IMG/VR virus record: IMGVR_UViG_3300030032_000362
Reading direction: 5' to 3' (one strand)
From: a virus
Lineage: Duplodnaviria > Heunggongvirae > Uroviricota > Caudoviricetes
DNA length: 64,000 nucleotides
The notes beneath the pieces were generated by a model. The model saw only the letters and a list, made by a program, of their open reading frames with translations, did no database searches and was not told the DNA's origin. The position numbers and the translations under genes were made by a program. Position 1 is the stretch's first letter, and the number at the start of each line of letters is the position of its first letter. Below are positions 1,067-62,161 of this stretch, one piece after another.

Positions 1067-1080
1067 TTAATATGTCTGTC
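1067..1080 (-). promoter_or_regulatory. Conserved promoter-associated motif TTAATATGTCTGTC (functional orientation GACAGACATATTAA)
   Basis: One of at least 25 near-identical copies in the window. It lies 33 bp upstream of the ATG at 1034. Confidence 0.6.
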
Positions 1081-1154
1081 CGAAAGAGAAAATTCATACA
1101 AACATAAGTCTTCCTAGAAACAGTAATTAGTAGCTGCTCCTTGTGTCCCTCAGG

Positions 1155-1205
1155 TCTACAATACCTATACATATAGTCTGTGAAAAAATGAGGGTGGTAA
1201 TGAAA
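1155..1205 (-). promoter_or_regulatory. Long variant element (B-type), copy 1 of 3
   Basis: About 50 bp, CCCTCAGgtCTAcaATACCTATACATATAGTCTGTgAAAAAATGAGGGTGGTAA. It is nearly identical to the copies at 12395-12455 and 44005-44060 and contains AACAGACTATATG, which is related to the core motif. Confidence 0.5.
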
Positions 1206-1308
1206 TATATCATTTTTATCTTAAAATCAACGAGTTTTCGCCATTTTAAGGTTTATGTTGAAAAGAAAACAAAAATATTTTATAATAAAAAAGAAGGGAG
1301 GAATAAAA

Positions 1309-1656
1309 ATGACAATTAAAGAGGTAATCGCAAGGGAAAATGTTATTATAACCTTAGACGATGGCACGGAAATGGATTCAGAAAAAACTCCGGAAGAATT
1401 GCTGTTTATTCTTTCAAAAGGAAACACAATTAAAGATTTAGACCACGATGAATTAACAAAAGCTTTTGTTGATGGCTGTGAGAAAGACATGATGAAAGCA
1501 TTCGTTCAAAACTATGACTTTTGGTTAGGGCGATACGAAAGTGGTTATTGGGACAAAGAAACATTTGAAAAACGATTGGGTAAAACAAAAGACCATCCTT
1601 TCCGAAGAATTTCTGATGGAGAGGAAATGTGGGAAACATTAAAAAAGAGTTTATAA
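1309..1656 (+). CDS. Hypothetical small protein (115 aa), one of the few plus-strand genes
   Basis: GGAGG RBS then ATG at 1309 (MTIKEVIARENV). The track ORF 1255..1656 has been trimmed to this start. Confidence 0.5.
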   Translation: MTIKEVIARENVIITLDDGTEMDSEKTPEELLFILSKGNTIKDLDHDELTKAFVDGCEKDMMKAFVQNYDFWLGRYESGYWDKETFEKRLGKTKDHPFRRISDGEEMWETLKKSL

Positions 1657-1664
1657 CAAAAAAG

Positions 1665-1695
1665 AGTAGACATTATGCCTACTCTTTTCTTATTA
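1665..1695. terminator. Bidirectional rho-independent terminator
   Basis: AAAAGAGTAGacattatgCCTACTCTTTTCTT, a 7-bp stem flanked by an A-run and a T-run. It sits between convergent genes 1309..1656 (+) and 1706..2164 (-). Confidence 0.5.
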
Positions 1696-1705
1696 TGAGA
1701 AAAAT

Positions 1706-2164
1706 TTATTTTTCGCTCGGATATGCAGTTAGAATCTTCCAACCTCTTTCCGAATTGTCTTTGGCTAAAACAATGCTGGCATCCTCTACCATCATTGTTT
1801 TCCCACTTCTGAGCATCAATTTACCGGTAATTTCTTCACATTCTTCTGGCAAATTAAGTACCAGTTTAGTTCTTACTGGGCTCAACAACCATTCTGAAAT
1901 ATCACTTTGGTTTAACTCATCAGAAAGAACCATTGAAACATAGTTTTCAGCATCTTCTAAGGTGTAAAATGTAGATGCCATATTAACATCTCCATAAGAT
2001 AACCTCGCTGATAACTGCGCTTCACTCAAACCTACATGACACCATAAAGCATGACCATTATTGCTTTCTGCTTCTGCTAAAAACAATCCAACGGTCGACC
2101 TGATGTATGGTACTACATATTTTACTCTGTGTTCCTCGATTCTTGAATATATTGATTTTGACAT
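1706..2164 (-). CDS. Hypothetical protein (152 aa)
   Basis: Complete ORF with an RBS; no motif recognised. Confidence 0.45.
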   Translation of the reverse strand: MSKSIYSRIEEHRVKYVVPYIRSTVGLFLAEAESNNGHALWCHVGLSEAQLSARLSYGDVNMASTFYTLEDAENYVSMVLSDELNQSDISEWLLSPVRTKLVLNLPEECEEITGKLMLRSGKTMMVEDASIVLAKDNSERGWKILTAYPSEK

Positions 2165-3029: not shown

Positions 3030-3344
3030 TTACATGTTTCCAACCATATAATTACGGCTGGAATATTTTCTTTTCACTTTCTTTACCACTTCCGGACGCT
3101 CTGCCTGAGCTTTTGATAAAATTGGCATTGAAAGTTTGTTTTTCCTTTCTTCGCGAAGATTATAAGCTTCTACCACCTTCTGGTGATAGAGATTACCCGG
3201 AATCTCCTGTTCAAAAGAAATTGTAGCTTCCTTTTCGCCAATTTCAACGGAATAACAAATTGGTTCTCCGTCAAAACGGCTGCGATTCAACACCTCGCAG
3301 AGATACGGAATCATTTTTTTCTTTGTTTTGAATTTTTTTCTCAT
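3030..3344 (-). CDS. Hypothetical small protein, paralog of 9659..9895
   Basis: Both share the N-terminal pattern K-IPYL-VL-R---DG--I. AAGGAGGG RBS. Core promoter motif 34 bp upstream. Confidence 0.45.
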   Translation of the reverse strand: MRKKFKTKKKMIPYLCEVLNRSRFDGEPICYSVEIGEKEATISFEQEIPGNLYHQKVVEAYNLREERKNKLSMPILSKAQAERPEVVKKVKRKYSSRNYMVGNM

Positions 3345-3377: not shown

Positions 3378-3390
3378 TTAATATGTCTGC
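3378..3390 (-). promoter_or_regulatory. Conserved promoter motif copy (TTAATATGTCTGC)
   Basis: Lies upstream of the 3030..3344 operon, immediately after the VirB4 terminator. Confidence 0.6.
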
Positions 3391-3400
3391 TGAACTATAG

Positions 3401-3432: not shown

Positions 3433-5853
3433 TTAATGTAAATCTGCTACAAAATCTTCCGGCTTTGTAGTCATTGCTTTATATAATTTCGTGTCTGACG
3501 GAAATTCATCAATAAATGGAATCATATTCTTTCCATCATAAATCAATCCTTGTCCATAACCACCATTTGTGATATACGAAAGCTGATTGTCGGAAATTGA
3601 ATAAATTTCCTGTAGTGTATCACGGTTAATCGGTGATTGTGATAATAAATATACAAAGGTGCAGTTATTAATTAATGCACGTGCTTTTTCGCTTGCTAAA
3701 AGGTCTTCCACATCTTGCGTAATACCGGTTGGAAGAGCTCCGTATTTACGTGCCATTTTGTACACTTTTTTTGTAAATTCAGCCGTACTGTCCAAATGTG
3801 TCAACAAATGGAATTCGTCCAAATAAATCCATGTTCGAATACCCTTTTTGTGATTTTCAATAATCTGGTTCCATAAGTTGTTAAAGCAAATAGTTAATCC
3901 CCATTCACGCATGTTGTCGCCGATGCCGGCAATATTATAACTTACAATACGCGAATTTGTATTTACGTTCGTCCGATGAGAAAACTTATCAAAGCTCGTA
4001 ATATACAATTCGAGAGCCGTTGCAATTTCCGTTGCTTCCATCTCTTCCTGCCCCATTAATATTTCATATAAATCTTGCAGCGTAGGCATTGCGTCTCTAT
4101 CAATTGTGATAGATGGGTCTTTTGCCCGTAGCTCCGTGATATGTTTCATATAATCACGATATACTAAACGTACACATCGGTTAATGATAGTTTTCTGAAT
4201 CGGGCTTAACCCATACATACCGCCTAGTGCAATTTCACAAATACTGCATATGTAATCTGATTTTACTGTAATCGGGTCGCCTTTTTCAGAATAACCTAAA
4301 TCCATATCCATTGGATTAAGATAATTGTCTTCATTAATATCAATCTTAACCTCTTCACCGCCAAGCAACTTCATCATTGGCGAGTACTCACCCTGCGGGT
4401 CAACGACATAAATACAATCATTTGTATTAAGTGCAACCTGATACATTTCTCGTTTAGCAGAAAAAGATTTACCGGTTCCCGGCATACCTAAAATAATGCC
4501 ATTACCATTAACCGAGAATTTACGATTATGGAAAATCATATTTCTGCTGACAGCATGTAAGCCATAATAAAATCCATCTTTTTGCATCAATTCTCGTGTT
4601 GAATATGGAACGAACGCACTGGTTTCTTCTGTCGTTGAAAGTTTGCTCATTTCGCTTGTGGACATAACGCATAACGGCAGAGAATCTTTAAAACCAAGTT
4701 CCTGTAAGGCATTCATGATACGAAACTTACATAAATGCTTTTCAACTACAGATTGAATTGTTTTAGTTTGTGAATCCAATTCCTCTTTTGAATCCGCATA
4801 GTGCATAACCAAAACATTTGTTAAAAACATTTTTTGGTCTTCTTCGGTGATGTCCGCCAACAAAAGGTCTGCATCTTTATATGCCTTTTTCACTTTTTCC
4901 GGAATTAATTCAGCAGAATAATTTCCTTTCACCGCCGTTTTTTGTGCTTCCATTACATCTTTTTTTGTTTTTGTCAATTGCCGCTCAACTAACTTTGTGG
5001 ACATTGCCGGGTCAAGAGGCTCAATATTGATTGTAGTAATCATATTAATCGGCAAATCCGTAATGTCCGAAATAATTTCCGGTGATAAACGAGTAACTGT
5101 TTCATAACGCAGTTTTAAAACACAGGCATATTTTTCATCCATTCTTATATAAGATGGGCGGAAAGAGAAAGACATTGGACCAATTAAGTCTTTCGTAGAA
5201 AGTCCATGCTTTTTCATATTCATATAATTAAATGTTTCTGCTTCTTTTCCATCAATATTTGCTCTGCGATAGAAATTACCCTCATCCCGATTCATAATGC
5301 TGTATAACAATTCAAGCCGTTCAATCAATGATAATTCAATCGTATCTTCATTTGATACATTCTTAATAGTCTTATTGATATTCGCTTTTAATGTATTAAA
5401 TCGAGATATAGCATCTTCTACGTTTTCTGCTTCAACGCTTAATGTCAAATATTTCAAATGCTGAATATTAGAACGTCCTTCTTTTGATTTTTCAATCAAA
5501 ATCTGATTATGTTCTTCACGATATTCGTCCAATGTATCGCCTTTCATCCGGCATAAAATATTTTTTTCAAATGTTTTTTTGCCCACTCGTTTATTATCAA
5601 TTGTTATCTGCATCAACATAGATGGGTCTAACAAATTAACTAAATCACGAAACATTTCCAAAATCTGTTCTGCATCTTCATCGGACGAAGTTTTCAAGTC
5701 AATATCTGTCAACCGAAAAGTTTTTGTAAAATATCCTTCCTCTGTTTCGATAATACCATCTTTATAAGCCCCTATATATGGTATTGTTTCCTGAACTGTT
5801 CGGCTGATTTTAAACTTTTTAGGACGTTTTTTTGTTACATTTTTCTGTTTCAT
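3433..5853 (-). CDS. virB4: Type IV secretion ATPase, VirB4 family (TcpF / Tn916 Orf16 / PrgJ-like)
   Basis: 806 aa. Walker A GILGMPGTGKSF. The N-terminus (ETIPYIGAYKDGIIETEEGYFTKTF) and overall length are typical of Gram-positive VirB4 homologs. Confidence 0.85.
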   Translation of the reverse strand: MKQKNVTKKRPKKFKISRTVQETIPYIGAYKDGIIETEEGYFTKTFRLTDIDLKTSSDEDAEQILEMFRDLVNLLDPSMLMQITIDNKRVGKKTFEKNILCRMKGDTLDEYREEHNQILIEKSKEGRSNIQHLKYLTLSVEAENVEDAISRFNTLKANINKTIKNVSNEDTIELSLIERLELLYSIMNRDEGNFYRRANIDGKEAETFNYMNMKKHGLSTKDLIGPMSFSFRPSYIRMDEKYACVLKLRYETVTRLSPEIISDITDLPINMITTINIEPLDPAMSTKLVERQLTKTKKDVMEAQKTAVKGNYSAELIPEKVKKAYKDADLLLADITEEDQKMFLTNVLVMHYADSKEELDSQTKTIQSVVEKHLCKFRIMNALQELGFKDSLPLCVMSTSEMSKLSTTEETSAFVPYSTRELMQKDGFYYGLHAVSRNMIFHNRKFSVNGNGIILGMPGTGKSFSAKREMYQVALNTNDCIYVVDPQGEYSPMMKLLGGEEVKIDINEDNYLNPMDMDLGYSEKGDPITVKSDYICSICEIALGGMYGLSPIQKTIINRCVRLVYRDYMKHITELRAKDPSITIDRDAMPTLQDLYEILMGQEEMEATEIATALELYITSFDKFSHRTNVNTNSRIVSYNIAGIGDNMREWGLTICFNNLWNQIIENHKKGIRTWIYLDEFHLLTHLDSTAEFTKKVYKMARKYGALPTGITQDVEDLLASEKARALINNCTFVYLLSQSPINRDTLQEIYSISDNQLSYITNGGYGQGLIYDGKNMIPFIDEFPSDTKLYKAMTTKPEDFVADLH

Positions 5854-5867
5854 AATAATACCCCTCC

Positions 5868-6236
5868 TTATTTAAAACGTTGCATTTCTTTGTCTTTTGA
5901 TTTTTTGGTTTTGATTACTTTTTTCTTGATTTTATAGCCGCACTTGTAAGTTCTTACTTTAGGCGATAACAAAGTTGGCAAAGCGCATTTTGCAAACTTT
6001 TCAATATGCATCCCATAAAATTTCCCCCAGCCAACAATAACAAAAGGAATCATTACAGCAATTAAAAGAAAGCCATTTTGGTCAGACATCATTTCAATAT
6101 CCGCAAAAAATATTGCTTTAATCAAATAAAAACACAAAAAACCTACGACAAGGCAGAATGCTTCTCGTGTAGAAAAAGGTCCAACTAATTTTTCTTTATA
6201 CTTGCGAACATCTCTATTTATATTTATCTTTTTCAT
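5868..6236 (-). CDS. Small T4SS membrane protein (VirB3 / PrgI / Orf17-like by position)
   Basis: 122 aa with two TM helices, immediately upstream of VirB4. That is the conserved position of VirB3-like genes in Firmicutes T4SS loci. Confidence 0.45.
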   Translation of the reverse strand: MKKININRDVRKYKEKLVGPFSTREAFCLVVGFLCFYLIKAIFFADIEMMSDQNGFLLIAVMIPFVIVGWGKFYGMHIEKFAKCALPTLLSPKVRTYKCGYKIKKKVIKTKKSKDKEMQRFK

Positions 6237-6275
6237 AAAAACTCCTTTCTTCCCCTGCCTAAACAGGGAACAATA

Positions 6276-7304
6276 CTATACTCCTGCAATGTCGTTCGCC
6301 AAACCTTGCGATTTCAATATCAACATCACTTCAGTAAAAATAACAATTAAGCAGGTAAATCCGGCGCCAATCATCGGTCCAATAACACTAGAACCATCTG
6401 TTCCGATTCCGTTTAATGCACCGCCAACAAGATTCGAGCAAACCATGCTGCCGGCATTTAAGATTCCGATAATTACAGCTCCTTGAATACAAGAGGCAAA
6501 AAATTTCTTTACATAAACCAATCCTCGGCCGGAAAATCCTTCTTGAACCATACTGATGCATCCAATAGGGGCCCATCCGCCGCGAACCATAATGTCAATA
6601 ATTCTTCCGTAGCATGTAGCATAAATAACTAGATTCAAAATTCGCGCAATAACATATGGGAAGAATGCTAAAAAAGTAATAACCCAGTCTGTAAGAGTGC
6701 CGGAATCCGACAAAACATAACCTAGCTTATTTAAGAAATCTATAATTCCTTTTGGGGCTGGAGCCGCGCTAACCGAGTCTGCTAAGGCATTTCCGATAGC
6801 AACAATTGCCTTTAAAATGTTATAACCGTTATCCATTAATGTTTTTGCGATAAAGAATTTAATTAAAAGACGAATTACTTGTTCAAAATCAAATCCATTG
6901 CGAGTTGCCTTGTCCAACAAATCCATTAAAAACATAACAACTAAAAGGGCTTCGCCCGCTAAAGCAACTGTGTCATAAGTTGTTTTTATCTGGTCATTGA
7001 TAGAGTTAATAAAATCACTTCCAGTTAAAGCGCTTTTCATATCATCCACTACACCATTCGCCACAATATACTTAAAAAAATCATATGGCGTTGTTTCACA
7101 GGCAGCATCAACACCGGTAGGATATTGACCATCCTGCTTGTAATTATCCGCTGTAACAGCCGGCTCCTTCATGTACTTTTCATACTCTTCATCAGCCGCA
7201 AATGCATGATTAACGGTTAATCCCGATAAAAAAATCGTATATATAAGAAAAGTCAGAAAAAACATTTTTATCTTTTTTCGTTGTTTACACATGCATAAAA
7301 ACAC
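6276..7304 (-). CDS. Polytopic membrane protein with signal peptide (VirB6 / PrgH / TcpH-like by position)
   Basis: 342 aa. N-terminal signal sequence then several TM segments. It occupies the VirB6-like slot upstream of VirB3/VirB4. Confidence 0.4.
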   Translation of the reverse strand: MFLCMCKQRKKIKMFFLTFLIYTIFLSGLTVNHAFAADEEYEKYMKEPAVTADNYKQDGQYPTGVDAACETTPYDFFKYIVANGVVDDMKSALTGSDFINSINDQIKTTYDTVALAGEALLVVMFLMDLLDKATRNGFDFEQVIRLLIKFFIAKTLMDNGYNILKAIVAIGNALADSVSAAPAPKGIIDFLNKLGYVLSDSGTLTDWVITFLAFFPYVIARILNLVIYATCYGRIIDIMVRGGWAPIGCISMVQEGFSGRGLVYVKKFFASCIQGAVIIGILNAGSMVCSNLVGGALNGIGTDGSSVIGPMIGAGFTCLIVIFTEVMLILKSQGLANDIAGV

Positions 7305-7316
7305 CTTCCTTTCTTG

Positions 7317-7826
7317 TTACGTTACTTTTACCCATTTCAAAATAGTTGTTACGCTAAAAGCAATTGCTCCGCCAAATAGCAGTTTGAGTCCTTTACTAAT
7401 TCCATCTGAGTTATCCTGCGCAAAGCCGAGGCCTGTAGAAAGACCACCATAAAGCGCAATAACAGCACCGATTACCTGTATAACAGATTCAATTGTTTTT
7501 AAAACATCTTTGAGCTGTGTTGAATCACCCATAAAAGTTCTTATATTTGCTAAAACCGCCCCTGCCGCTAATTCAGCAATGCCTTTTGAAAGCTGCTCTG
7601 CCTGGTCAGATGTCATAGCGATACCAAATTTCCATACACCAAGAACTAAAAAAACATCTCCAATCGTTTCTACGACTGGATATAAGTATTTGTTGCTCAA
7701 TACGCCAATTTTAGCGGCCGCTACTGCGCTGTCGGCGTAACCAACAGTAATGGATAAGGTTAAAATCGTAATCAAAAGAAGAAAAGAGAAAAAAAATTGT
7801 TTTTTTTGTTCATATGTTAATTTCAT
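7317..7826 (-). CDS. Pilin-like small membrane protein (VirB2/TrbC-like), paralog A
   Basis: Signal peptide plus two hydrophobic helices. The C-terminal half (IGAVIALYGGLSTGLGFAQDNSDGISKGLKLLFGGAIAFSVTTILKW) is about 70% identical to the neighbouring gene. Confidence 0.4.
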   Translation of the reverse strand: MKLTYEQKKQFFFSFLLLITILTLSITVGYADSAVAAAKIGVLSNKYLYPVVETIGDVFLVLGVWKFGIAMTSDQAEQLSKGIAELAAGAVLANIRTFMGDSTQLKDVLKTIESVIQVIGAVIALYGGLSTGLGFAQDNSDGISKGLKLLFGGAIAFSVTTILKWVKVT

Positions 7827-8332: not shown

Positions 8333-8346
8333 TTAATATGTCTGTT
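8333..8346 (-). promoter_or_regulatory. Conserved promoter motif copy
   Basis: TTAATATGTCTGTT, about 48 bp upstream of ATG 8285. Confidence 0.6.
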
Positions 8347-8414: not shown

Positions 8415-9344
8415 CTAATTATCCTTTGTTACAATAGAATTTGCGCCCTGAACCGTAATCCAACCATGAGATTTTCTAGCCTGTGCCAGCTCATAATCAA
8501 TCAGTTCTTTTGTCAAACTGTTAGAAATCTTTTTGTTCGCATTTGCTTCTGCATTGGACGAAATTTCCTTTGCTTTGGCATCTGCTTCTGCCTGCCGCTG
8601 CTTTACTTTGGCATCTGCTTCTGCTTTTTCAACAGATTTTTTGTTGTTAATCTGCTGCGTCTCGTATTCAATCTGCGCCTGCTGCTTTTTCGAAATGCGT
8701 TTATCATATTCTTTGTCAAATCCAATCTGGCTGATAACTACTTTGTTAATCTTAATTGTGTTTTCGCCGTATTTCCCATCAATAGACTCCTGCAATACTT
8801 TTAAAGTTTTTGGCTCAATCACGCTTCGATTTGTTACATCAACTGGATTTAATGTTTTAGATGCAGACTTAACAGCAGACGCTACTAACGTTTCCGGAAT
8901 CAAATTATCCGCATTTGTTACATTTGCGTAAATCCATGCAGAACGCTCCGGTAAAATCTGACAAGTTACGGTAATATCCGAAAACTGTACTGTGTTTCGT
9001 TCACTTGTTTCTGATTCAATAAGTGAATCTTCATAATATTTAACATCCTGCTGCTTGTTGTTAATCAATTCAATATGTTGCACAAAAGGCATTTTAAAAT
9101 TCAATCCATTCGATAATGGACGGTTATCAATCTGTCCAAATTTGGACGACACTCCGGTATAACCGGTTGGAATAATGGTAAATGACTGTCCGAGAACAAT
9201 AACTAAAATGCCTAATACAATTAAACTTGCCGGAATTGATTTTTTTACTTCTTCCTCTTCATAAGCTTTGTACATTATGTACCCAATTGAACTAAGTGCA
9301 ATCAGCACTCCAATAATAGTTACTACAATTTCCATTTCATTCAT
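8415..9344 (-). CDS. SPFH/band-7 family membrane protein with C-terminal coiled coil
   Basis: N-terminal TM helix. GYTGVSSKFGQIDNRPLSNGLNFKMPFVQ fits the prohibitin/stomatin core. The C-terminus is K/E/A-rich (AEADAKVKQRQAEADAKAKE). Confidence 0.5.
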   Translation of the reverse strand: MNEMEIVVTIIGVLIALSSIGYIMYKAYEEEEVKKSIPASLIVLGILVIVLGQSFTIIPTGYTGVSSKFGQIDNRPLSNGLNFKMPFVQHIELINNKQQDVKYYEDSLIESETSERNTVQFSDITVTCQILPERSAWIYANVTNADNLIPETLVASAVKSASKTLNPVDVTNRSVIEPKTLKVLQESIDGKYGENTIKINKVVISQIGFDKEYDKRISKKQQAQIEYETQQINNKKSVEKAEADAKVKQRQAEADAKAKEISSNAEANANKKISNSLTKELIDYELAQARKSHGWITVQGANSIVTKDN

Positions 9345-9549: not shown

Positions 9550-9614
9550 TTAATATGTCTGTTTTAAAATCAAATGAAAACCATATTATAAAGAAAATTT
9601 TCCTTACACATGTC
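9550..9614 (-). promoter_or_regulatory. Extended promoter/operator element (core motif plus inverted partner), copy 1 of 5
   Basis: TTAATATGTCTG then about 27 bp then CATATTATaAAG. It continues as AAAATTTTCCTTACACATGTC, which is shared with the 41499 copy. About 200 bp of structured leader separates it from the 8415..9344 start. Confidence 0.55.
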
Positions 9615-10786: not shown

Positions 10787-10875
10787 CTATAAAAACTACC
10801 TGTCTTTACAGTAAAATGTCTTTAGAAGACCTTTCTCCTTATTTTTATTTATTGCATAAAGCAAATTGTTATTAT

Positions 10876-52328: not shown

Positions 52329-52372
52329 CTAATATGTCTGTTTTGAATTAAAACGAAAATCATATTATGAGC
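52329..52372 (-). promoter_or_regulatory. Extended promoter/operator element, copy 4 of 5
   Basis: CTAATATGTCTGTTTTGAATTAAAACGAAAATCATATTATGAGC. Confidence 0.55.
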
Positions 52373-55389: not shown

Positions 55390-55857
55390 TTACTGACAGC
55401 GAATAATTCCGCCACAAGTTTCCATTACTCCAATTTCGCCGATTTCCTGTTCTCCGGTTGTGAGATTGCAGCAGTTAGATAAGACATAATAAACACCGTT
55501 GTTTACATACATAGGCATCGCTTCATTTCCCGGCAAGTCTTCTTCTGATACAAACAGCAAATCTGCTAATGTTCCGAAAGTTGTCTCTGAAACAACAACG
55601 TGATACACATGACAGTTATAAGCTTCTTCTGTCTCCTTTATCAGACGTTCAATATCATCACCACTTGAAAACTCCGACAAATGATATACAACTCCAATTG
55701 CTGAAGTTCCTCCAACATATTGAGGAACAAGAGCTCTCCTTTTAGACAAAAGAATTTCTCCCGGCTCTATTTGCAAAAAATCAGAAAAATTTACGCCTAT
55801 TTTTGCTAATCGCCGTTCTCCTATTTTTGTAAGTTCTTCATAAACTTCTTTTTTCAT
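55390..55857 (-). CDS. Hypothetical protein (155 aa)
   Basis: Complete ORF; a promoter motif at 55888-55900 is about 30 bp upstream. Confidence 0.4.
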   Translation of the reverse strand: MKKEVYEELTKIGERRLAKIGVNFSDFLQIEPGEILLSKRRALVPQYVGGTSAIGVVYHLSEFSSGDDIERLIKETEEAYNCHVYHVVVSETTFGTLADLLFVSEEDLPGNEAMPMYVNNGVYYVLSNCCNLTTGEQEIGEIGVMETCGGIIRCQ

Positions 55858-55887: not shown

Positions 55888-55900
55888 TTAATATGTCTGT
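55888..55900 (-). promoter_or_regulatory. Conserved promoter motif copy (TTAATATGTCTGT)
   Basis: Upstream of the 55390..55857 operon. Confidence 0.55.
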
Positions 55901-56328
55901 AATAATGAGCAATAAAAAAACAGCCTTGTATATAAGACTGTTTTTTGTCCTGCGAAAATTCCCATCCAAAATTCTTAAATTTCAAATAATTCATTGCCCG
56001 AAAAGTTGCTCATGTCTTGTAATACTGCATGAGCAAATTCCTTTGAGTAGTTATTCCACAATTCGTCTTGTAATTTTTCGGAATCATGAATGTGTTCTAA
56101 CTCATTGTCTTTTATAAATTTTTTCATTAAATTTTTCATTCTGTATTCATAATTTTCTTCAATTGTTGGTATGTACATAGTTATCACTCCTTATTATTAT
56201 GCAATATTTCTTTTAGCTTAGGTTTAATATACTCATCAAAAATGTACCATCGCCGATAAGATTATCTTCTTTTTGATAATACCATCCGTAGATATTATTG
56301 TCAATGTATGCTAACACTTTATACCTCC

Positions 56329-56877: not shown

Positions 56878-57267
56878 TCATTCTTCATCACTCCAATCAA
56901 ACTTGCATCCGCAATTGCTGCAATAATTCGGTGCATCGTTGTTATCAAGAACCCCTGGGTCGTGACTTACTAACATCACTTTACCACAAGAACAATGATA
57001 TTTACTTACCTCATCGCCAAAATTAAGCTCAAATATAGGTTTTACTAATCTGGCCTCCTTTTCTGCTCTTTTGCCCTCTTGTTCCATTCCATTTTCTTTT
57101 ACTATTTCGATTGCTCGCTCTATCATTCTTCTTTGGGTGCAATCACGGCATGGGATATCTCCAACAGGACAATTATCAAAGTCACACGCATCAAGTTCGC
57201 ACAGTTCTTTCAACTGTTCCAAGATTGACATATCAGATGCTTTTTTGTTGTTTGTTAATCTCTCCAT
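56878..57267 (-). CDS. Cys-rich putative zinc-binding protein (129 aa)
   Basis: CDFDNCPVGDIPCRDCTQRR and YHCSCGKV...YCSNCGCKF provide several CxxC pairs. Confidence 0.35.
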   Translation of the reverse strand: MERLTNNKKASDMSILEQLKELCELDACDFDNCPVGDIPCRDCTQRRMIERAIEIVKENGMEQEGKRAEKEARLVKPIFELNFGDEVSKYHCSCGKVMLVSHDPGVLDNNDAPNYCSNCGCKFDWSDEE

Positions 57268-57303: not shown

Positions 57304-57317
57304 TTAATATGTCTGTT
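57304..57317 (-). promoter_or_regulatory. Conserved promoter motif copy
   Basis: TTAATATGTCTGTT about 37 bp upstream of ATG 57267. Confidence 0.55.
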
Positions 57318-57402
57318 TTACACAAAAACTGAATCGTCATTATAAGAAAAAATATTTTATTTTGGTATAAAAAAGCCTAACCGTTTGGTCAGGCTTTCTT
57401 CG

Positions 57403-58380
57403 TTACTGTACAGAAGCATTATCTTCTTGCAGTTTTTTCATTAAACGATAACCGATATCCGCTATTTTATACGCCCATGTATCACCTACACAATACATAG
57501 TATTGATACCGACAAGGCTTGGGCCGTTATCATATCTGGCTCCTTTGGTAAGATATTTGGAGCGGATATGTTTTGCTGTCATCAAAAGGTTCTCCTCTCC
57601 ACTGGCAGCGTTAATACCCTCTGCTTCATCGGAATATACACCAAAGCCGGTGTAGTTATGGTCTTCTTTTGCGCGCTTAGAAGTTCCCCATCCGCTTTCT
57701 AATGCAGAAAGTGCACATATGGCAATTGCGTTAATATGTAATTCTCTTTCGATTTTTACATAAACCGGAGCAAACTCCTGCAAGTCGGTATCCTGCAAAA
57801 TCTGCCGCATCTGTTTAACTGAAATATTGCTGACTTCCGTAACATCATTCGGATTGAATACAACGCCATCAAGAGAATTCAATTCTCGCAAGTCAATCTT
57901 CATCTGAGAAAGTATCTGTTTTTCCATATCGACATTCTGGCTTAATTTTTTCTTTTCAGCCTCTAATGTTTTAATCCGTTCACTAATCTTCTTTTCTTTT
58001 AAGATTTTCTTAACAGCATTTGTGTCAATTTCTCGATATGCGAAATTCTGCGTTTCCCATAGTCCATCTTGCAAATTATCAACAAATGGTGATTTTCGCT
58101 CTTCCATTAGCTGATTTTGCACATTTGCATCTTTTTGAGATTTCTGTAATTTAATCTCAGATGCAACATCTCTCTTTTTTTCTCTAAATGTTTTTACCAC
58201 TTTGGACTGACGCTTCATATCCTCTTTAAGCTCTTCTACTTTTGAAGTGACCTCTGGAGAAACATATACGACTCGCTTCATTTCAACCTCTTTAACGTCC
58301 TTTTCTACGGCTGATGCATTATGAAACATTCCACCAACAATACTTAATGTAGCTGCTACTGCAATAATCATTCTTTTCAT
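57403..58380 (-). CDS. Secreted peptidoglycan hydrolase with glucosaminidase (FlgJ-like) domain and N-terminal coiled coil
   Basis: Signal peptide. A long K/E-rich coiled coil. C-terminal AICALSALESGWGTSKRAKEDHNYTGFGVY matches the mannosyl-glycoprotein endo-beta-N-acetylglucosaminidase signature (AALESGWG-S). VirB1-like role in a T4SS context. Confidence 0.6.
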   Translation of the reverse strand: MKRMIIAVAATLSIVGGMFHNASAVEKDVKEVEMKRVVYVSPEVTSKVEELKEDMKRQSKVVKTFREKKRDVASEIKLQKSQKDANVQNQLMEERKSPFVDNLQDGLWETQNFAYREIDTNAVKKILKEKKISERIKTLEAEKKKLSQNVDMEKQILSQMKIDLRELNSLDGVVFNPNDVTEVSNISVKQMRQILQDTDLQEFAPVYVKIERELHINAIAICALSALESGWGTSKRAKEDHNYTGFGVYSDEAEGINAASGEENLLMTAKHIRSKYLTKGARYDNGPSLVGINTMYCVGDTWAYKIADIGYRLMKKLQEDNASVQ

Positions 58381-58426
58381 ATGAAAATTCCTCCTTATTA
58401 TTTAATGATTACATTCTTAATATGTC

Positions 58427-58439
58427 TGTAAGGCAAAGC
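58427..58439 (-). promoter_or_regulatory. Conserved promoter motif copy (TTAATATGTCTGT)
   Basis: About 47 bp upstream of ATG 58380. Confidence 0.55.
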
Positions 58440-58459: not shown

Positions 58460-58830
58460 ATTACCCCACCATAATGGTTATATATAAATTTGTTATATAT
58501 GAAATCTATCCCGCTATGATGATATAAAAATTAAAAACTATTCCCACTATGATGTTTATTGTTATTCCCGACATACTGGGTATTTTTTGTCATATATGAA
58601 AACGTATTATAATGTTTTTGCTATTAAAAAGGGGAATGTCCCCACCATAGAGGAATCCCCACTGTTCCACTATACAGAGAAAGTTTATTTTCCCCACTAT
58701 AGAGTGGTTCATCTTCAAAGCGGGTACCGGAATTCTAATTTCCTTACCCCACCATAGCGGTATTACATCGTTTCCCACCATGACGGCAGTTCCGATTACG
58801 ATTTACCGTCTACATAGAGGGATGATTTAT
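58460..58830. repeat. Iteron array: about 10 copies of an imperfectly palindromic 14-16-bp motif (consensus tCCCCACyATAGAGG)
   Basis: Copies at about 58463, 58508, 58542, 58565, 58638, 58656, 58691, 58746, 58771 and 58805 (the last reversed). Examples: CCCCACCATAGAGG, CCCCACTATAGAGTGG, CCCCACCATAGCGG, TCCCACCATGACGG. The array is flanked by two copies of TTTTTGTCATATAT-GAAAAC-ATTATA (58584 and 58866). It sits in an 860-bp gap with no ORF. Confidence 0.6.
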
Positions 58831-59244
58831 TATCGTGGGAGGGCAATCCAATACAAGGAAATATTTTTTTGTCATATATAGAAAAACATTATATCAATTA
58901 TTTCACAAAGAGTTTAAGCCGGTCTTCCTCGTCCAATGATTTTATTTATTCCTACTACATCTCCGGATACTCTTCTTCCTTAGTGGCAGCAGTTATTTCT
59001 TATGCGAGTACATCTGATTATGGTATAATTTGATGTGAGAAAATAGGTTAAGTATAAACCTAATATACAATTGCGTAGAAAGTATATATACTTTTTTCTT
59101 TTTGAACAGGAAAAAATAATACTATATAACACAAAAGACGCCTGCTTAATGCAAGCGTCTTCGCTACTCTTTCTTCCTATAAATGGTAGACGAGCTATAA
59201 TATCACTAATTATAATTTCGTATTTTATACTCCAATCATTTCCA

Positions 59245-61113
59245 TCACTCCTTTTCGTTTAAAAGTGCTTTGTTTGTAATTTGCTTATCCATAACAGTGG
59301 CCAATTCAGTTACAAATCTTGATTCTCGCATCTTCTTTCCTCTTGAACGGTTTGTATACGAGATATGTAAAAAATCTTTTGCCCTTGTCATAGCTACATA
59401 GAACATCCGGCGTTCCTCTTCAATGTCATTAATCTCGCCCTTGTGTGAATATGGCGTAAAACCTTCATTAGCGTTAATAATGAATACATGTTTAAATTCT
59501 AAACCTTTAGAGCCATGCATTGTCATCAAATAGATGCCCTCTTTTGTCTCGTCAATACTCTTTTTTAGAGTAAACGTATAATCTTTTGCATATTCAACCC
59601 ATTCATCGAAAGAATCAAATGTTTTTGATGTATCAACAATCTCATCCAGAATATCAATTAATTCCTGAGGATTCATCCTGTTGTAATCCGCAAAATCAAG
59701 CAAGGCCTTTTTATAATCCATGTGATTGATTAAATAATCCAAAAAGCTTTGTAATTTCATACGGCTCATGGTTTTTATATCCTGTTTAAACCGAAAAATA
59801 TTTCTTGCAATGTATGGTTTACGATGCATAACGCCCCATTCAACTAAATCATCTAAGCTCTTGCTCTGCTGCAAGGCTTCATTAGGAATATATCGCGTTG
59901 GACGCTTTAAAGCTTTTTTGATTTCACCAAACGGAGCAGTATTTATACTTTTTCCGAGTTCATGAAAGCGAACAATGTCTTTAAAAATCCAATGTTCAAA
60001 CAAATTGACAACACCTTCTGTTTTTGCGACAAACGGAATGTCAGCATCCATTAAAACAGATGCGATTTTAGGGCATTCTTTATTTGTGCGATAGATAATA
60101 GCAATATCGTCTAGTGAGGTGCCTTTATTAAGCAGTTTTTTAATATCGCCTATAACGCCTATAGCTTGGAGTTCCGGCGTGCGGTATGGCTTAATCTCAA
60201 TAGAACCCTTTTCACGAACTGATTTGAAATCTTTATCAAATCGCTTCGAATTTGATTTAATGAATTCAGAAGCAGCACTTACAATTTTTTCTCCGGAACG
60301 ATAATTCGTATCAAGTGTAATCCTTTTTGCATTTGCTTTTTTTTCAAATGCTAACATAATTTCCGGTTTTGCTCCTCTGAACTGATAAAGTGATTGGTCA
60401 TCATCTCCAACAATACATAAATTATTGCGAGGGTTCGCTAATAATTCGATTAATTCCATTTGTGTATGACATACATCTTGACACTCATCTACCTGGATGT
60501 ATTGATATCGGTCACGCCAACAATCCAATATGTCCTTATTTTTTTTTAGTAGTTTTAAGCATTCAATCTGCATATCATCATAATCAATTTTTTTATTTTG
60601 CTTACAATAATTACAGTACTCATTGAAAATCAACTGTAATTGCTCTTCCCGGCAACCGCATTCGATGTCATAGGGCGGTTTAAGCATTCCGGATTTAATA
60701 TTACTGATAGCGCTTACCAAATCCTTGATTAAAGTATTAATGTCTTCTGTGTAAATTTTGTTGTTCTTTATGATTTCGCGCAAAACATTCCATTCATCTC
60801 TTTCTGTTAACACATTCTCATATGTATAATCAAAAGAAGTTGTTAATATAGCCAATGCAACAGAATGAATTGTGCCAAAAGTAACACCCGGTGTCTCGCA
60901 TTGAGTTAAAGCCTCATATCTCATCTGCATTTCTTTAGCAGCAGCTTTTGTAAATGTAATGACCAATATGTTGTATGGATTTACACCTTTTTCAATTAAT
61001 TTAGCCGTTCGATTTACTACAACTGTGGTTTTTCCAGAACCCGGTCCGGCCACTACAATTAACGGGCCATCTTTATGATTGATAGCCGCTTTTTGTTCTT
61101 TATTAAAACTCAT
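59245..61113 (-). CDS. UvrD/Rep/PcrA-family superfamily-1 DNA helicase
   Basis: 622 aa. Walker A AGPGSGKTT. TIHSVA. DExx block QVDECQDV. IVGDDDQSLYQFRGA. TNYRSG. MTMHGSKGLEFKHVFI. YVAMTRAK. Confidence 0.85.
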   Translation of the reverse strand: MSFNKEQKAAINHKDGPLIVVAGPGSGKTTVVVNRTAKLIEKGVNPYNILVITFTKAAAKEMQMRYEALTQCETPGVTFGTIHSVALAILTTSFDYTYENVLTERDEWNVLREIIKNNKIYTEDINTLIKDLVSAISNIKSGMLKPPYDIECGCREEQLQLIFNEYCNYCKQNKKIDYDDMQIECLKLLKKNKDILDCWRDRYQYIQVDECQDVCHTQMELIELLANPRNNLCIVGDDDQSLYQFRGAKPEIMLAFEKKANAKRITLDTNYRSGEKIVSAASEFIKSNSKRFDKDFKSVREKGSIEIKPYRTPELQAIGVIGDIKKLLNKGTSLDDIAIIYRTNKECPKIASVLMDADIPFVAKTEGVVNLFEHWIFKDIVRFHELGKSINTAPFGEIKKALKRPTRYIPNEALQQSKSLDDLVEWGVMHRKPYIARNIFRFKQDIKTMSRMKLQSFLDYLINHMDYKKALLDFADYNRMNPQELIDILDEIVDTSKTFDSFDEWVEYAKDYTFTLKKSIDETKEGIYLMTMHGSKGLEFKHVFIINANEGFTPYSHKGEINDIEEERRMFYVAMTRAKDFLHISYTNRSRGKKMRESRFVTELATVMDKQITNKALLNEKE

Positions 61114-61120
61114 ATTTTAC

Positions 61121-61423
61121 CTACTTTCTTTTTTTGATTTTGTTGTTTTTAATCACAATAGCTGCCAACGCAACAAATAAAACAATAAGAACTAATGCAT
61201 TATATTTATTGTTTTTTGCCACATCAGTCCCAATTTCTTTAAATTCTTCTTCAGGACTTAAAGTTGCTTTTGGCGTTGGGCTCGCAATCGTTGCGGCACT
61301 ATTTGTTGCGCTTTCAACATTGTATTCATATTGACTTGCAGGTTGCATTGTAGTTTCTGCCTTTGCATAATTAAATGGCAATGCCATAATTACAAGAGCT
61401 ATCATTAAAATATATTTTTTCAT
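61121..61423 (-). CDS. Small secreted/membrane-anchored protein (signal peptide plus C-terminal TM)
   Basis: MKKYILMIALVIMALPFNYAKAE and a C-terminal LVLIVLFVALAAIVI. Stop and start are 7 bp from the helicase gene. Confidence 0.4.
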   Translation of the reverse strand: MKKYILMIALVIMALPFNYAKAETTMQPASQYEYNVESATNSAATIASPTPKATLSPEEEFKEIGTDVAKNNKYNALVLIVLFVALAAIVIKNNKIKKRK

Positions 61424-61484
61424 AAAAATCCTCCTTTTGTTATTGTGATATTATTAATAGTCTCCTTTTATTATCGTGACACTA

Positions 61485-61528
61485 TTAATATGTCTGTTTT
61501 TAGATGAAATAAAAATCATATTATGAGA
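61485..61528 (-). promoter_or_regulatory. Extended promoter/operator element, copy 5 of 5 (plus a degenerate core copy at about 61451-61464)
   Basis: TTAATATGTCTGTTTTTAGATGAAATAAAAATCATATTATGAGA. Confidence 0.55.
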
Positions 61529-61552
61529 AAAAAGGCTTCATTAGAAGCCTCT

Positions 61553-62146
61553 TTAACAACATTCAGTTAATATATCAACTGCAACTTGGTTCAGCCCTTT
61601 ATCCGACTTCATAATTTTAAGAGCTTCTTCTTTTGACCGTTTTTTATGATATACGCGGTCTGCGGTCAACGCTTCATAGACATCAGCTACGCTCACTATT
61701 TGAGTTAATATATCAATTTTATGTCCTCGTAATTTTTGTGGATATCCACTTCCATCTAGCCGTTCATGATGATGATATACAATATCTACAACTGTACGAT
61801 TAAAATCCAATTGCTTTAATACCCAAAAGCCGTACTGGGGATGACACTCAATTAAGGTTCTATCATCCTGAGTTAATTTTTTGGCTTTATTAAGCACGTC
61901 TTGATTTACATAAGATTTTCCAATATCATGTAATAAAGCTCCTACTGCTAAATCAATTTTTTGTTGCAAATTAAATCCATACACTTCGGCTATTTGCAAA
62001 GCAATATCACACGTCCGGCTGCAATGCTCAAATACATCTTCACCTAATGAATATTGAAAATCTTTTGTATATTTATCCTTAATAATATTTAATGCAATAT
62101 CTTTAATATTTTTCATGCATAATTTGCACCTCCTTAACATAATCAT
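61553..62146 (-). CDS. HD-GYP domain protein (putative c-di-GMP phosphodiesterase or signalling HD hydrolase)
   Basis: HDIGK then HHHERLDGSGYPQ: the HD plus GYP signature. Confidence 0.65.
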   Translation of the reverse strand: MIMLRRCKLCMKNIKDIALNIIKDKYTKDFQYSLGEDVFEHCSRTCDIALQIAEVYGFNLQQKIDLAVGALLHDIGKSYVNQDVLNKAKKLTQDDRTLIECHPQYGFWVLKQLDFNRTVVDIVYHHHERLDGSGYPQKLRGHKIDILTQIVSVADVYEALTADRVYHKKRSKEEALKIMKSDKGLNQVAVDILTECC

Positions 62147-62147
62147 T

Positions 62148-62161
62148 TTTAATATGTCTGT
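62148..62161 (-). promoter_or_regulatory. Conserved promoter motif copy
   Basis: TTAATATGTCTGTT upstream of 61553..62146. A related TTAATATGATGC lies at about 62189. Confidence 0.5.

Follow-up and report, generated by a model that had tools for sequence, protein, structure and literature searches.

Near-identical copies of one 14-nt motif stand ahead of gene after gene in the stretch of DNA analysed here (the window, 64,000 nt), and the question is what kind of signal they represent and what reads it. The explanation we favour, and to which we give about an even chance of being right, is that the motif is the complete core promoter (approximately -18 to +1) of a regulon that spans an integrative conjugative element (ICE), likely read by a dedicated sigma-like factor. 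The window is part of this ICE and not of a phage, and the ICE resides in the chromosome of a Firmicute from the human gut. A reading of the letters alone (the sequence-only reading) had spoken of uniformity across about 60 kb; the ICE is at least 105 kb long and runs past both window ends. It encodes a Firmicute-type T4SS (VirB4, VirD4, PrgI, TrbL_2, Maff2-like, and Mob_Pre proteins), with a VirB4 of the CD1110 family. Its left junction adjoins a host tRNA-Glu(CTC), past the PolC/ApbE genes, and the G+C content drops there from 0.40 to 0.33. No integrase was seen in the approximately 106 kb of reconstructed ICE; a relative, L256, terminates with an excisionase and a tyrosine integrase.

Distribution and orientation of the motif

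The exact 14-mer TTAATATGTCTGTT occurs 15 times in the window, always on the + strand, and never in 100 shuffles. Allowing one mismatch gives 24 copies, and allowing two gives 28 matches (26 on the + strand), compared with 1.75 expected. A 9-nt core, ATATGTCTG, is present 25 times on the + strand, where chance predicts none, and is absent from the other; the earlier count of at least 25 copies is thus reached with near-exact copies included, and not by the exact 14-mer. Across the approximately 106 kb of reconstructed ICE there are at least 43 copies, 38 on the main coding strand and 5 on the other, all co-oriented with the downstream gene.

The copies that face - strand genes follow one another through the window and are exact unless a variant is given. 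The first, at 1067-1080 (GACAGACATATTAA), precedes a 206-aa T4SS-associated gene (414-1034) and then 187-aa and 1450-aa genes. The next, at 3378-3391 (AGCAGACATATTAA), lies 17 nt past a terminator, ahead of 3030-3344 and further genes including an RNase_A_bac toxin, and the copy at 8333-8346, also past a terminator, heads the Maff2-like/VirB6-like/PrgI/VirB4 operon (8285 down to 3433). Beyond it, copies precede an SPFH/Band_7 gene (9550-9563; gene 8415-9335), a 295-aa multi-HTH gene (10875-10888, AGCAGACATATTAA, past a terminator; gene 9899-10786), 11773-12081 with an NTP-pyrophosphohydrolase-like gene at 11306-11752 (12185-12198), and a transglutaminase-like gene (16007-16020, TGCAGACATATTAA; gene 15027-15977). 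A 1312-aa surface protein gene (17037-20975) follows the copy at 21054-21067, an IrrE/ImmA-like gene (22570-23133) the copy at 23283-23296, and a 1888-aa LRR/Flg_new surface protein gene (23604-29270) the copy at 29347-29360, which stands past a terminator. The copy at 34553-34566 serves a 482-aa putative relaxase and the VirD4 coupling protein (34520 down to 30781), and that at 36428-36441, with a Shine-Dalgarno sequence 12 nt past the 14-mer, a lipoprotein gene (35443-36405). Two tandem copies, at 41587-41600 (past a terminator) and 41499-41512 (ending in TTAG), head a tRNA array and a ROOL RNA with no ORF, which indicates that the signal is transcriptional and unrelated to translation.

To the right of this array, copies precede 43263-43859 (43918-43931, ending in TTAT), a small-ORF cassette from about 45856 downstream (45903-45916, GACAGACATATTAA, past a terminator), 47574-47900 (47963-47976, past a terminator), 48552-48791 (48907-48920), 50000-50173 (50205-50218), 52013-52264 (52329-52342, ending in TTAG), 55390-55857 (55888-55901, TACAGACATATTAA), and 56878-57267 (57304-57317). 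The last three stand before a glucosaminidase gene (58417-58430, TACAGACATATTAA; gene 57403-58380), 61121-61423 with a UvrD-like helicase gene at 59245-61113 (61485-61498), and an HD-domain gene (62149-62162; gene 61553-62116). One core copy falls within a longest-ORF call (45593-45928), the true start of which is probably downstream.

The motif is not strictly one-stranded and follows gene orientation, as shown by a variant, AAAAGACATATTAT on the + strand at 34594-34607, that lies 32 nt upstream of a + strand CHC2 zinc-ribbon gene (34639-35340) and forms a back-to-back promoter pair with the copy at 34553-34566. A single orientation had been claimed for all copies; it holds for 25 of 25 core copies and fails for this 26th. 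Measured from the motif 5' end, the start codon is never closer than 32 nt and lies at 32-60 nt for approximately 70% of copies, as proposed (30-60 bp), and at 72-172 nt for the rest. A terminator directly before the motif was found for 11 of 34 copies with a strict terminator finder and for about 16 of 34 by eye, fewer than the "most" originally asserted. Where present, its stem mostly ends 17-27 nt upstream of the motif, and between terminator and gene the motif is the sole conserved sequence. The statement that essentially every transcription unit is marked was slightly too strong, given 18 intergenic gaps of at least 70 nt without the motif, several of which have canonical sigma-A-type promoters.

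These distributions bear on whether the motif is a promoter at all. A polar DNA signal of another kind, such as a roadblock "stoperator", a complementary-strand priming site, a Chi/KOPS-like sequence, or a cassette recombination junction, would explain the strong strand bias. Homology with an ICE variant, L244, restarts exactly at the copy at 50205-50218, which therefore marks a cassette-exchange junction. The + strand reading of the motif also contains GTC, the T7 primase recognition triplet, and the ICE encodes the CHC2 primase-type zinc-ribbon protein. However, each of the five opposite-strand copies, which include three back-to-back pairs, heads an opposite-strand gene, so that orientation tracks transcription and not replication or transfer polarity. 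The spacing to the Shine-Dalgarno sequence and start codon stays within a narrow range for about 70% of copies, a purine is conserved at position 18, and none of the 25 core copies lies within a confidently called gene. Where a strong terminator closes the preceding unit, the next gene requires a promoter of its own, and the motif is the one conserved sequence available there. We consider a non-promoter signal highly improbable.

Anatomy of the promoter

Read along the transcript, the consensus extends to 19 nt, AACAGA-CATATT-AAnAnT-R, in place of the 14 bp first described. In a logo of 34 copies, positions 3-12 are invariant and position 2 is conserved in 33; since these copies were picked by a 14-mer match, the invariance at 3-12 arises partly by construction. 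Outside the picking pattern, 30 of the 34 carry T17 and all 34 have a purine at position 18. The hexamer CATATT, at positions 6-11 in 34 of 34 copies, has the character of a sigma-70-family -10 element. The sequence-only reading had placed TATTAA there; CATATT is the better assignment because it alone preserves A(-11) and T(-7) across every lineage variant (CATAAT, CATCCT, CATACT, TATGTT, and TATACT). TATTAA, or any hexamer farther downstream, is excluded as the -10 element by Shine-Dalgarno sequences that begin as little as 4 nt past the 14-mer (the copy at position 4801 of the extension beyond the window and that at 924 in the relative L261). Such proximity means that +1 lies no later than about position 18, and with CATATT as the -10 element these Shine-Dalgarno sequences stay within the transcript. 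The invariant purine 6 nt past the hexamer fits +1, a start position that we infer from this geometry.

The absence of a consistent -35 element was borne out: the mean best match to TTGACA is 2.9 of 6, compared with 2.56 at random positions. Positions -15/-14 are AG in all copies and not TG, so that the motif does not qualify as a canonical sigma-A promoter. No conserved activator site was found at about -35 to -60; upstream of position 0, conservation is limited to T-richness and, at about one third of the private promoters, a second element termed box B. Box B (YATAATATGrTTTTyrTTT) carries a sigma-A-like -10 hexamer, YATAAT, that ends 21 nt upstream of the 14-mer. In the window it lies at 9572-9591, 12207-12226, 41521-41540, 52351-52370, and 61507-61526, ahead of the copies at 9550, 12185, 41499, 52329, and 61485, respectively, and as a variant at 57326-57345 ahead of the copy at 57304; it could permit factor-independent early expression. 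At many copies an unrelated terminator hairpin, which ends 17-27 nt away, occupies the upstream region and leaves no room for an activator site. Without a -35 element and without such room, the motif is a self-contained core promoter, and its specificity would be read by the transcription machinery itself. Folding of the region from -12 to +48 revealed no secondary structure (mean z 0.3 sense and -0.2 antisense) and left the motif bases mostly unpaired. There is no conserved stem-loop of the kind that defines hairpin or single-stranded DNA promoters (N4 virion RNA polymerase, Frpo).

Host contrast, lineage variants, and the repressor alternative

The host flank (PolC to tRNA-Glu, 7.2 kb) uses TTGACA-17-TATAAT promoters and has no motif copy in its intergenic DNA, which bears out the proposals that the motif is an element-specific promoter-type signal and not a plain housekeeping promoter. 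A minority of ICE maintenance genes likewise have canonical TTGACA/TATAAT promoters. On the - strand, a 155-aa protein gene with three HTH-like repeats (13766-14233), a paralogue of the 295-aa gene at 9899-10786, has the host-type promoter TTATTC-17-TATAAT (14258-14286). An IrrE/ImmA-like metalloprotease gene (21657-22442) has TTGTCA-17-TATAAT with TG (22458-22486), and a MazF-type toxin-antitoxin pair (16213-16873) has TTGATT-17-TATAAT with TG (16969-16997). On the + strand, membrane-protein genes at 12579-13741 follow TAGACA-17-TACAAT with TG (12528-12556), and a 115-aa gene at 1309-1656, facing the RNase toxin gene, follows TTGAAA-17-TATAAT (1258-1286). The last four units lack the motif. 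The ICE would thus have two promoter tiers: a canonical sigma-A tier for maintenance and regulatory genes (toxin-antitoxin pairs, the ImmA-like protease, the tri-HTH protein, and immunity-like membrane proteins) and a private tier for transfer genes, leading-region-like cassettes, surface proteins, and the tRNA/ROOL array.

Related ICEs, ordered by VirB4 identity to the ICE studied here, carry variants of the same signal. L261 (64%), with a locus G+C content of 45%, has C(A/T/G)GACATAYT; L256 (63%) has CAGACAT(AA/CC)TAA; L258 (56%) has CAGACATATTAT; and L277 (46%) has yTnACATATTAA. L260 (53%) and L276 (47%) share A(A/T)AGGTAT(G/A)(T/C)TA. The copies in these relatives occur on both strands, each before a gene on the same strand, and the YATnnT core is kept; no such motif was found in a distant C. 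perfringens plasmid (VirB4 41%). CAGACATAYT is retained in relatives of 32-45% G+C, and a sister lineage has AGGTATRYTA; the motif co-varies with element lineage and not with host G+C content. The architecture is kept while its sequence varies by lineage, an indication of a dedicated specificity factor.

With TGnTATAAT, the extended -10 sequence of sigma-A, the motif shares G(-14), A(-11), T(-10), A(-9), and T(-7), and given these bases sigma-A may weakly recognise it. This leads to a second explanation, a serious rival that we nevertheless hold only tentatively and that the sequence-only reading had raised as a repressor-controlled switch: the motif would be a weak pseudo-extended -10 (xAGA-CATATT) read by host sigma-A and overlapped by the asymmetric operator of a master repressor that silences the integrated ICE and is removed on induction, in the manner of ImmR/ImmA (ICEBs1), L5 operators and stoperators, KorA/KorB (plasmid RK2), or MrpR/SPBRE (prophage SPbeta). 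The protein encoded at 13766-14233 is a candidate motif-binding repressor and the ImmA/IrrE-like protease (21657-22442) a candidate anti-repressor, and both have canonical promoters. The near-invariance over 14 nt is more easily explained by a protein operator than by the consensus of a sigma factor. Furthermore, more than 20 asymmetric, transcription-oriented 13-mers in promoters and short intergenic spaces constitute the published pattern of operators and stoperators in the cluster A mycobacteriophage L5, whose binder, gp71, is a monomer with two DNA-binding domains (PMC9283540). The ICE resembles L5 in its many intergenic 13-14-mers (at least 43 copies), their orientation tied to transcription, and its tri-HTH protein.

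However, most L5 sites are roadblocks within long operons transcribed from a few sigma-A promoters, whereas about half of the sites in this Firmicute ICE directly follow intrinsic terminators and lie at a fixed distance from +1 and from the Shine-Dalgarno sequence. These sites must themselves be promoters, whichever protein overlaps them. Reading by sigma-A should also have selected a good -35 element or a TG, and the motif has neither, although other genes of this ICE have canonical promoters with both. No member of the tri-HTH family turned up in the related-ICE loci that share the motif, the 295-aa paralogue is only 57-59% identical between ICE variants with an unchanged motif, and a structural model of the tri-HTH protein had no significant match in Foldseek.

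Candidate readers and comparison with known systems

Under the dedicated-factor reading, CATATT(A) would act as the -10 element, AACAGA as a lineage-specific upstream extension that stands where a TGn/TRTG "extended -10" would, and transcription would start at the invariant purine 6 nt past the hexamer. The most likely reader would be host core RNA polymerase with a dedicated sigma-like factor that recognises only the extended -10 region. The search for it proceeded protein by protein against Pfam together with precomputed Pfam annotation, with PHROGs and NCBIfam on 75 unannotated ORFs, with signature regular expressions, and with phmmer against PDB for four large unknown proteins. No sigma-70-family, T4 gp55-like, or single- or multi-subunit RNA polymerase gene was found in approximately 106 kb, with the right arm covered to the Mob_Pre gene. 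The earlier remark that no sigma factor is annotated thus extends to this larger region; the proposal of one dedicated factor is strengthened by the co-variation among related ICEs, although the factor itself did not appear. It is probably element-encoded, in the right arm beyond Mob_Pre or among the many unannotated ORFs.

Known regulons offer partial parallels. T4 late promoters (TATAAATA; gp55, gp33, and the sliding clamp) are likewise -35-independent, with a conserved -10-region element before every unit of the regulon, and the streptococcal ComX/sigma-X cin-box (TACGAATA) is also a -10-region element only. In both cases a small dedicated sigma directs the host core polymerase. By contrast, the ICE motif is far longer (14 near-invariant positions, 19 in total), its setting is neither a phage nor a competence regulon, and no gp55, ComX, or sigma-70-family gene was detected in the approximately 106 kb. 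Closer in setting are the Tn916/Tn1549/Tn5397-type conjugative transposons of Clostridia, Firmicute elements that share the CD1110 family of VirB4. They carry orphan sigma genes, eight in C. difficile 630, presumed to transcribe element genes (PMC7438776). In the ICE studied here the promoter is evident and a sigma gene is not.

Most sigma regulons have fewer near-invariant positions; conservation to this degree typically marks the sites of a sequence-specific DNA-binding protein or the promoters of a phage-type RNA polymerase. A promoter of a non-sigma polymerase (phage-type single-subunit or YonO/crAss-like, from the right arm or an unrecognised protein) would be a continuous 19-nt recognition sequence ending at the start site, as in T7 and SP6. 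The motif has a matching layout, with an A/T-rich 5' end, a G/C-containing core, an A/T-rich segment just ahead of +1, and a start at a purine. Its core, GACATATTA, is similar to GACACTATA of the SP6 promoter. As in T7-like phages, a promoter and a terminator accompany every short unit, and near-invariance extends over more than 40 copies. The UCS promoters of the yeast cytoplasmic linear plasmids pGKL1/2 share with those of T7 and SP6, and with the ICE motif, a short, continuous, near-invariant sequence that abuts +1 before each gene, with a terminator for every unit. We nevertheless rate this explanation as improbable, since no RNA polymerase family match exists in about 106 kb and no DxDxD motif occurs in any double-psi beta-barrel-like ORF of at least 150 aa. 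The large conserved 1450-aa unknown corresponds to a lysozyme-domain protein of L277, and all lineage variants keep the YATnnT typical of a sigma-70-family -10 element, unlike the T7/SP6/pGKL1/2 promoters.

The dedicated-factor reading also has counterparts among conjugative elements in which one element-encoded regulator and one motif coordinate most operons, namely AcaCD (IncC plasmids), SetCD (SXT/R391 ICEs), and KorA/KorB (IncP). AcaCD and SetCD boxes number about 10-20 and are placed at the -35 of otherwise sigma-70-type promoters or farther upstream, and KorA/KorB operators are palindromic; the ICE motif, in contrast, is itself the -10/+1 region, asymmetric, without a -35, and present in more than 40 copies. 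No FlhDC-, KorA-, or KorB-like protein was found in the ICE.

The 42-64 kb part of the window resembles a leading region, with many small co-oriented ORFs, RadC, YodL, acidic proteins, and repeated promoters, which recalls the Frpo/ssi leading regions (PMC11541004). Frpo promoters are long single-stranded DNA hairpins that mimic -35/-10 elements (PMC11541004), whereas the unstructured ICE motif drives T4SS and surface-protein genes as well.

Distribution and anatomy of the recurrent motif

The exact 14-mer TTAATATGTCTGTT occurs 15 times in the window, on the + strand every time (0/100 dinucleotide-preserving shuffles). Allowing up to two mismatches yielded 28 matches (1.75 expected), of which 26 lie on the + strand, and the 9-nt core ATATGTCTG has 25 copies on that strand and none on the other. 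Because the minus strand carries nearly all of the genes, each copy reads AACAGACATATTAA toward its downstream gene. These counts bear out the description given in the sequence-only reading, with three corrections: its figure of at least 25 copies holds when near-exact copies are included but not for exact ones; the distance of about 30–60 bp to the start codon applies to about 70% of the copies (32–60 nt) and not to the remainder; and a terminator directly precedes the motif in roughly half of the copies rather than in most. In most of the terminator-preceded copies, 17–27 nt separate the end of the stem from the motif, which is the sole conserved sequence in the gap between terminator and gene. 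One of the two other-strand matches (AAAAGACATATTAT, 34594–34607) lies 32 nt upstream of a + strand gene (34639–35340). Across the integrative conjugative element (ICE) reconstructed around the window, at least 43 copies were counted, 38 on the main coding strand and five on the other; each of the five is followed by a gene on its own strand, and three belong to back-to-back promoter pairs.

An alignment of 34 copies gave the consensus AACAGACATATTAAnAnTR, in which positions 3–12 are invariant and position 2 is kept in 33/34, although this invariance is partly by construction since the copies were picked by their match to the 14-mer. Position 17 is T in 30/34 copies and position 18 a purine in all 34, while only T-richness was seen upstream. 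At 16–18 nt spacing, the best TTGACA match averaged 2.9/6, versus 2.56 at random positions, and AG stands where an extended -10 would have TG. Secondary structure around the motif did not exceed chance on either strand, which rules out a hairpin or single-stranded DNA promoter. With no -35, close terminators and no structure, the motif must therefore hold a complete, very compact core promoter. We consider it very probable that the motif serves as the core promoter for a regulon spanning the ICE, and the chance that it is a non-promoter DNA signal is very slight.

The sequence-only reading had taken TATTAA (positions 8–13) as the -10 box, an assignment that we abandon in favor of CATATT (positions 6–11). 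Sigma-70-family proteins flip out the A at -11 and the T at -7, and the CATATT frame offers both. The same positions in related ICEs read CATAAT, CATCCT, CATACT, TATGTT or TATACT, all conforming to YATnnT. The 8–13 frame places an A at -7 and loses this pattern in the relatives, whose variants in that frame lack A-11 or T-7. Furthermore, a Shine-Dalgarno sequence begins 4 nt past the 14-mer at position 4801 of the 81-kb extended sequence and at position 924 of L261, a related locus, so that +1 must fall at or before approximately position 18, the invariant purine 6 nt after CATATT. With either TATTAA or AAnAnT (positions 12–17) as the -10, +1 would fall within the Shine-Dalgarno sequence or past it in some copies. 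From the A-11/T-7 match, the YATnnT pattern in relatives and the Shine-Dalgarno limit, we infer a promoter composed of AACAGA (-18 to -13), CATATT (-12 to -7), an AAnAnT discriminator and a putative +1 at the purine of position 18. A sporulation-sigma reading was also considered, given that CATATTA resembles the sigma-G -10 box CATACTA, but the matching -35 is absent. Approximately one-third of the private promoters are accompanied by a second element, box B (YATAATATGrTTTTyrTTT), whose YATAAT hexamer ends 21 nt upstream of the 14-mer and in several copies is preceded by TG; by its sequence, box B looks like a sigma-A -10 box in tandem with the private promoter.

A two-tiered conjugative element

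The record is classified as viral; however, a phage identity was rejected, as its large proteins are LRR/Flg_new surface proteins and type IV secretion system (T4SS) parts, and capsid and terminase genes are absent. Among the products encoded by the window are the coupling protein VirD4, the VirB4 ATPase ("CD1110 family") and proteins of the PrgI, VirB6-like and Maff2-like types. Two giant surface proteins of the LRR/Flg_new kind, a glucosaminidase, ImmA/IrrE-like proteases, toxin-antitoxin pairs and a UvrD-like helicase are encoded there as well. A 20-kb tract of small ORFs, along with RadC and YodL, resembles a plasmid leading region. Two SPFH/Band_7 genes (8415–9335 and 38220–39317) were also noted. 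Joining the window to near-identical loci gave the 81-kb sequence, and extension leftwards from there was continued until host genes were reached. These host genes encode PolC, ApbE, FMN-binding proteins and tRNA-Glu(CTC), and G+C drops from about 0.40 to about 0.33 at the junction; these features together show that the element is an ICE with its insertion site next to a tRNA gene. One related element terminates in an excisionase and a tyrosine integrase. Rightwards, a Mob_Pre gene is followed by non-coding DNA with iteron-like repeats, and the ICE continues beyond both, for a length of at least about 105 kb. In exact-protein look-ups, the element turned up in many assemblies from the human gut, with contigs reaching 367 kb, and the index of the assembly collection lists one of its proteins in 177 blocks, indicating that it is widespread in the human gut. 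Contigs that carry the ICE include ERZ28565840 scaffold_21 (353 kb, ICE at approximately 119–225 kb), ERZ27286937 k141_698795 (367 kb) and ERZ918343 k127_114927. Megablast against phage and plasmid collections returned no annotated relative; the matches consisted of 3 kb in an 11-kb "Bacteriophage sp." record that lacks annotation and of a single tRNA.

The motif was not found in the intergenic DNA of the 7.2-kb host flank, which shows TTGACA-17-TATAAT, and the motif-less units of the ICE carry canonical promoters. The latter include the MazF-type pair (genes 16213–16873; promoter 16969–16997, minus strand, TTGATT-17-TATAAT) and the ImmA-like protease gene (promoter 22458–22486, minus strand, TTGTCA-17-TATAAT), both with TG before the hexamer, as well as the gene of a 155-aa protein with three helix-turn-helix (HTH) modules (promoter 14258–14286, minus strand, TTATTC-17-TATAAT), the HipA-like kinase unit (29416–30402, host-type promoter) and the + strand genes at 1309–1656 and 12579–13741. 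The motif is thus not a flavor of host promoter, and the ICE is two-tiered. Together with the poor -35 score and the AG in place of TG, this upholds the earlier view that the motif is no plain housekeeping promoter. Host promoters at the HipA-like unit and the MazF pair are consistent with maintenance functions that stay on while the rest of the element is silent.

To our knowledge, how Firmicute ICEs are regulated is understood only in a few small models, namely ICEBs1, Tn916 and ICESt3, in which long operons are served by one or two promoters. Phages and yeast linear plasmids are known to have element-wide private promoters, as are, by way of activator boxes, proteobacterial conjugative elements. 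In the literature searched, we found no description of one in a Firmicute ICE, and the motif string appears in no relevant paper. In its organization, the present ICE resembles a T7-type phage: over more than 100 kb, more than 40 short units share the same private promoter, often with their own terminator. Among these units is an array of seven tRNAs (37871–41400, minus strand) that contains a ROOL RNA (39864–40441; RF03087, 368 bits against a gathering score of 99). Two motif copies precede the array and, judged by position, probably drive all of it. An ICE carrying ROOL and tRNAs, among them the unusual tRNA-Ile(AAT) and tRNA-Ile(TAT), is worth a study of its own.

Lineage variants and the reader of the promoter

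VirB4 homologs form a graded series, and the private-promoter architecture is kept down to about 46% VirB4 identity, in loci that span 32–45% G+C and in which the motif copies follow gene orientation in all relatives listed. The motif reads C(A/T/G)GACATAYT in L261, CAGACAT(AA/CC)TAA in L256, CAGACATATTAT in L258, yTnACATATTAA in L277 and A(A/T)AGGTAT(G/A)(T/C)TA in the sister lineage of L260 and L276. Promoters of this VirB4 clade can be classed as CAGACATAYT, ACATATTAA or AGGTATRYTA. No comparable motif was found in a C. perfringens plasmid with a CD1110-family VirB4 (41% identity). These lineage-specific variants indicate that the promoter diversifies with the element lineage, the pattern that would be expected if an element-borne specificity factor reads it.

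The element-encoded factor proposed in the sequence-only reading therefore gains from the lineage tracking of the promoter, but no sigma-70-family, gp55-like or polymerase-like protein was found in the approximately 106 kb of the ICE examined, up to the Mob_Pre region. About 70 proteins were compared with Pfam, 75 unannotated ORFs with PHROGs and NCBIfam, and four large unknown proteins with the PDB (phmmer); the search also included a scan for DxDxD and regular expressions for sigma regions. In L277, the counterpart of a conserved 1450-aa unknown protein has a lysozyme domain. Recognition by a non-sigma polymerase appears improbable.

The main alternative, possible but less probable, is a composite promoter/operator, in which a weak sigma-A promoter is overlapped by the operator of a master repressor. 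The distribution of the motif matches the operator/stoperator pattern of cluster A mycobacteriophages, which have more than 20 asymmetric 13-mers oriented with transcription and a repressor that acts as a monomer with two DNA-binding domains (PMC9283540). The ICE encodes the 155-aa protein (13766–14233, minus strand) and a 295-aa multi-HTH paralog (9899–10786, minus strand), and the 155-aa protein and the ImmA-like protease are both under host-type promoters, as a repressor and an anti-repressor would be. Moreover, G-14, A-11, T-10, A-9 and T-7 of TGnTATAAT are kept in the motif, making weak sigma-A recognition conceivable. However, weak sigma-A promoters should have gained a -35 or a TG, and neither is present despite the neighboring canonical promoters. 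In addition, no member of the 155-aa family was seen in the loci of motif-bearing relatives. The AlphaFold model of the 155-aa protein (pLDDT 75) has three modules, each of a beta-hairpin and three helices, and Foldseek against the PDB gave nothing significant, with the I-TevI DNA-binding domain at rank 2 (E = 1.3). The 295-aa paralog has about five HTH-like repeats, is represented by only four clusters among 5.8 billion sequences, and no homolog was found in the relatives' loci. It is hypervariable, with 57–59% identity between variants whose motif is identical, compared with 92–97% for the ICE backbone. This speaks against the repressor reading and makes the paralog unlikely as a specificity factor; it suggests diversifying selection, for example for exclusion or immunity specificity.

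Regarding the reader itself, we see about an even chance that it is a dedicated sigma-like factor rather than plain sigma-A, a model that is not mutually exclusive with the composite promoter/operator. More tentatively, and short of an even chance, the ICE family may carry its own promoter-specificity subunit, co-diversified with the -35-less 19-nt promoter (CAGACATATT versus AGGTATRYTA lineages). Such a subunit would be a highly divergent minimal sigma or a new kind of protein that redirects the host core RNA polymerase, and would constitute a private, orthogonal transcription system of gut Firmicute conjugative elements that also drives the element-borne tRNA/ROOL array. If a dedicated factor does read the promoter, it would provide a single switch for transfer, anti-defense cargo and surface adhesins in gut bacteria, offer a ready-made orthogonal promoter/factor pair for engineering Clostridia and probably define a new protein family; should the reader be a novel protein, the system could become a new family. 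The lineage variants represent a natural co-variation screen for the factor, and a position weight matrix of the motif is a practical marker by which the element and its gene cassettes can be delimited in metagenomes.

Gene cassettes and outlying motif copies

Gene cassettes vary among ICE variants, and one breakpoint falls exactly on a promoter copy (50205–50218). Compared with window 10965–11257, the variant locus L253 carries a defense-like SIR2/HAD_SAK_2/YpsA cassette (5007–7587) inserted just upstream of a terminator–promoter module; the repeated modules may serve as recombination joints. Within the T4SS operon, a CdiA-CT-type RNase A toxin domain gene (1706–2164, minus strand) faces the conserved 115-aa gene at 1309–1656 (+ strand), whose canonical promoter appears constitutive, an arrangement kept in L256 and L261. 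The two may encode a T4SS-delivered toxin and its immunity protein. In the right arm of the ICE (L271 12040–12870), 800 nt of non-coding DNA separate the Mob_Pre gene from the next promoter. This stretch has four to five iteron-like repeats, CC(G/A)TCATGGTGGGAGA, and is a candidate oriT or replication origin on sequence grounds. From the same region, CCGTCATGGT recurs in the 464-nt gap 3′ of the helicase gene (window ~58781–59245).

In L260 (~4400–4550 and 19010–19100), two ATGTCT copies lie just upstream of the AGGTATGTTAT promoter (ATGTCTTATTAyGArATGTCTGATTT). On the opposite strand ATGTCT reads AGACAT, which is the core of the window motif, and the pair may be an operator related to the promoter core of the other lineage. 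Scans of genome and viral contigs with the bare 14-mer gave single chance matches only, and the motif combined with a Shine-Dalgarno pattern matched 32 IMG/VR loci versus 18 and 8 for two permuted-motif controls, barely above chance. Among those 32 loci, two unrelated families of temperate phages from the human gut each have one identical motif copy (L280 1647–1660 and L305 2521–2534); their genes include ERF, a ParB-like gene, a methylase and a serine integrase. If real, these copies hint at cross-talk or a host-encoded reader; their identity to the ICE copies extends to 19–23 nt, and each precedes a tiny ORF antisense to the ParB/methylase operon.
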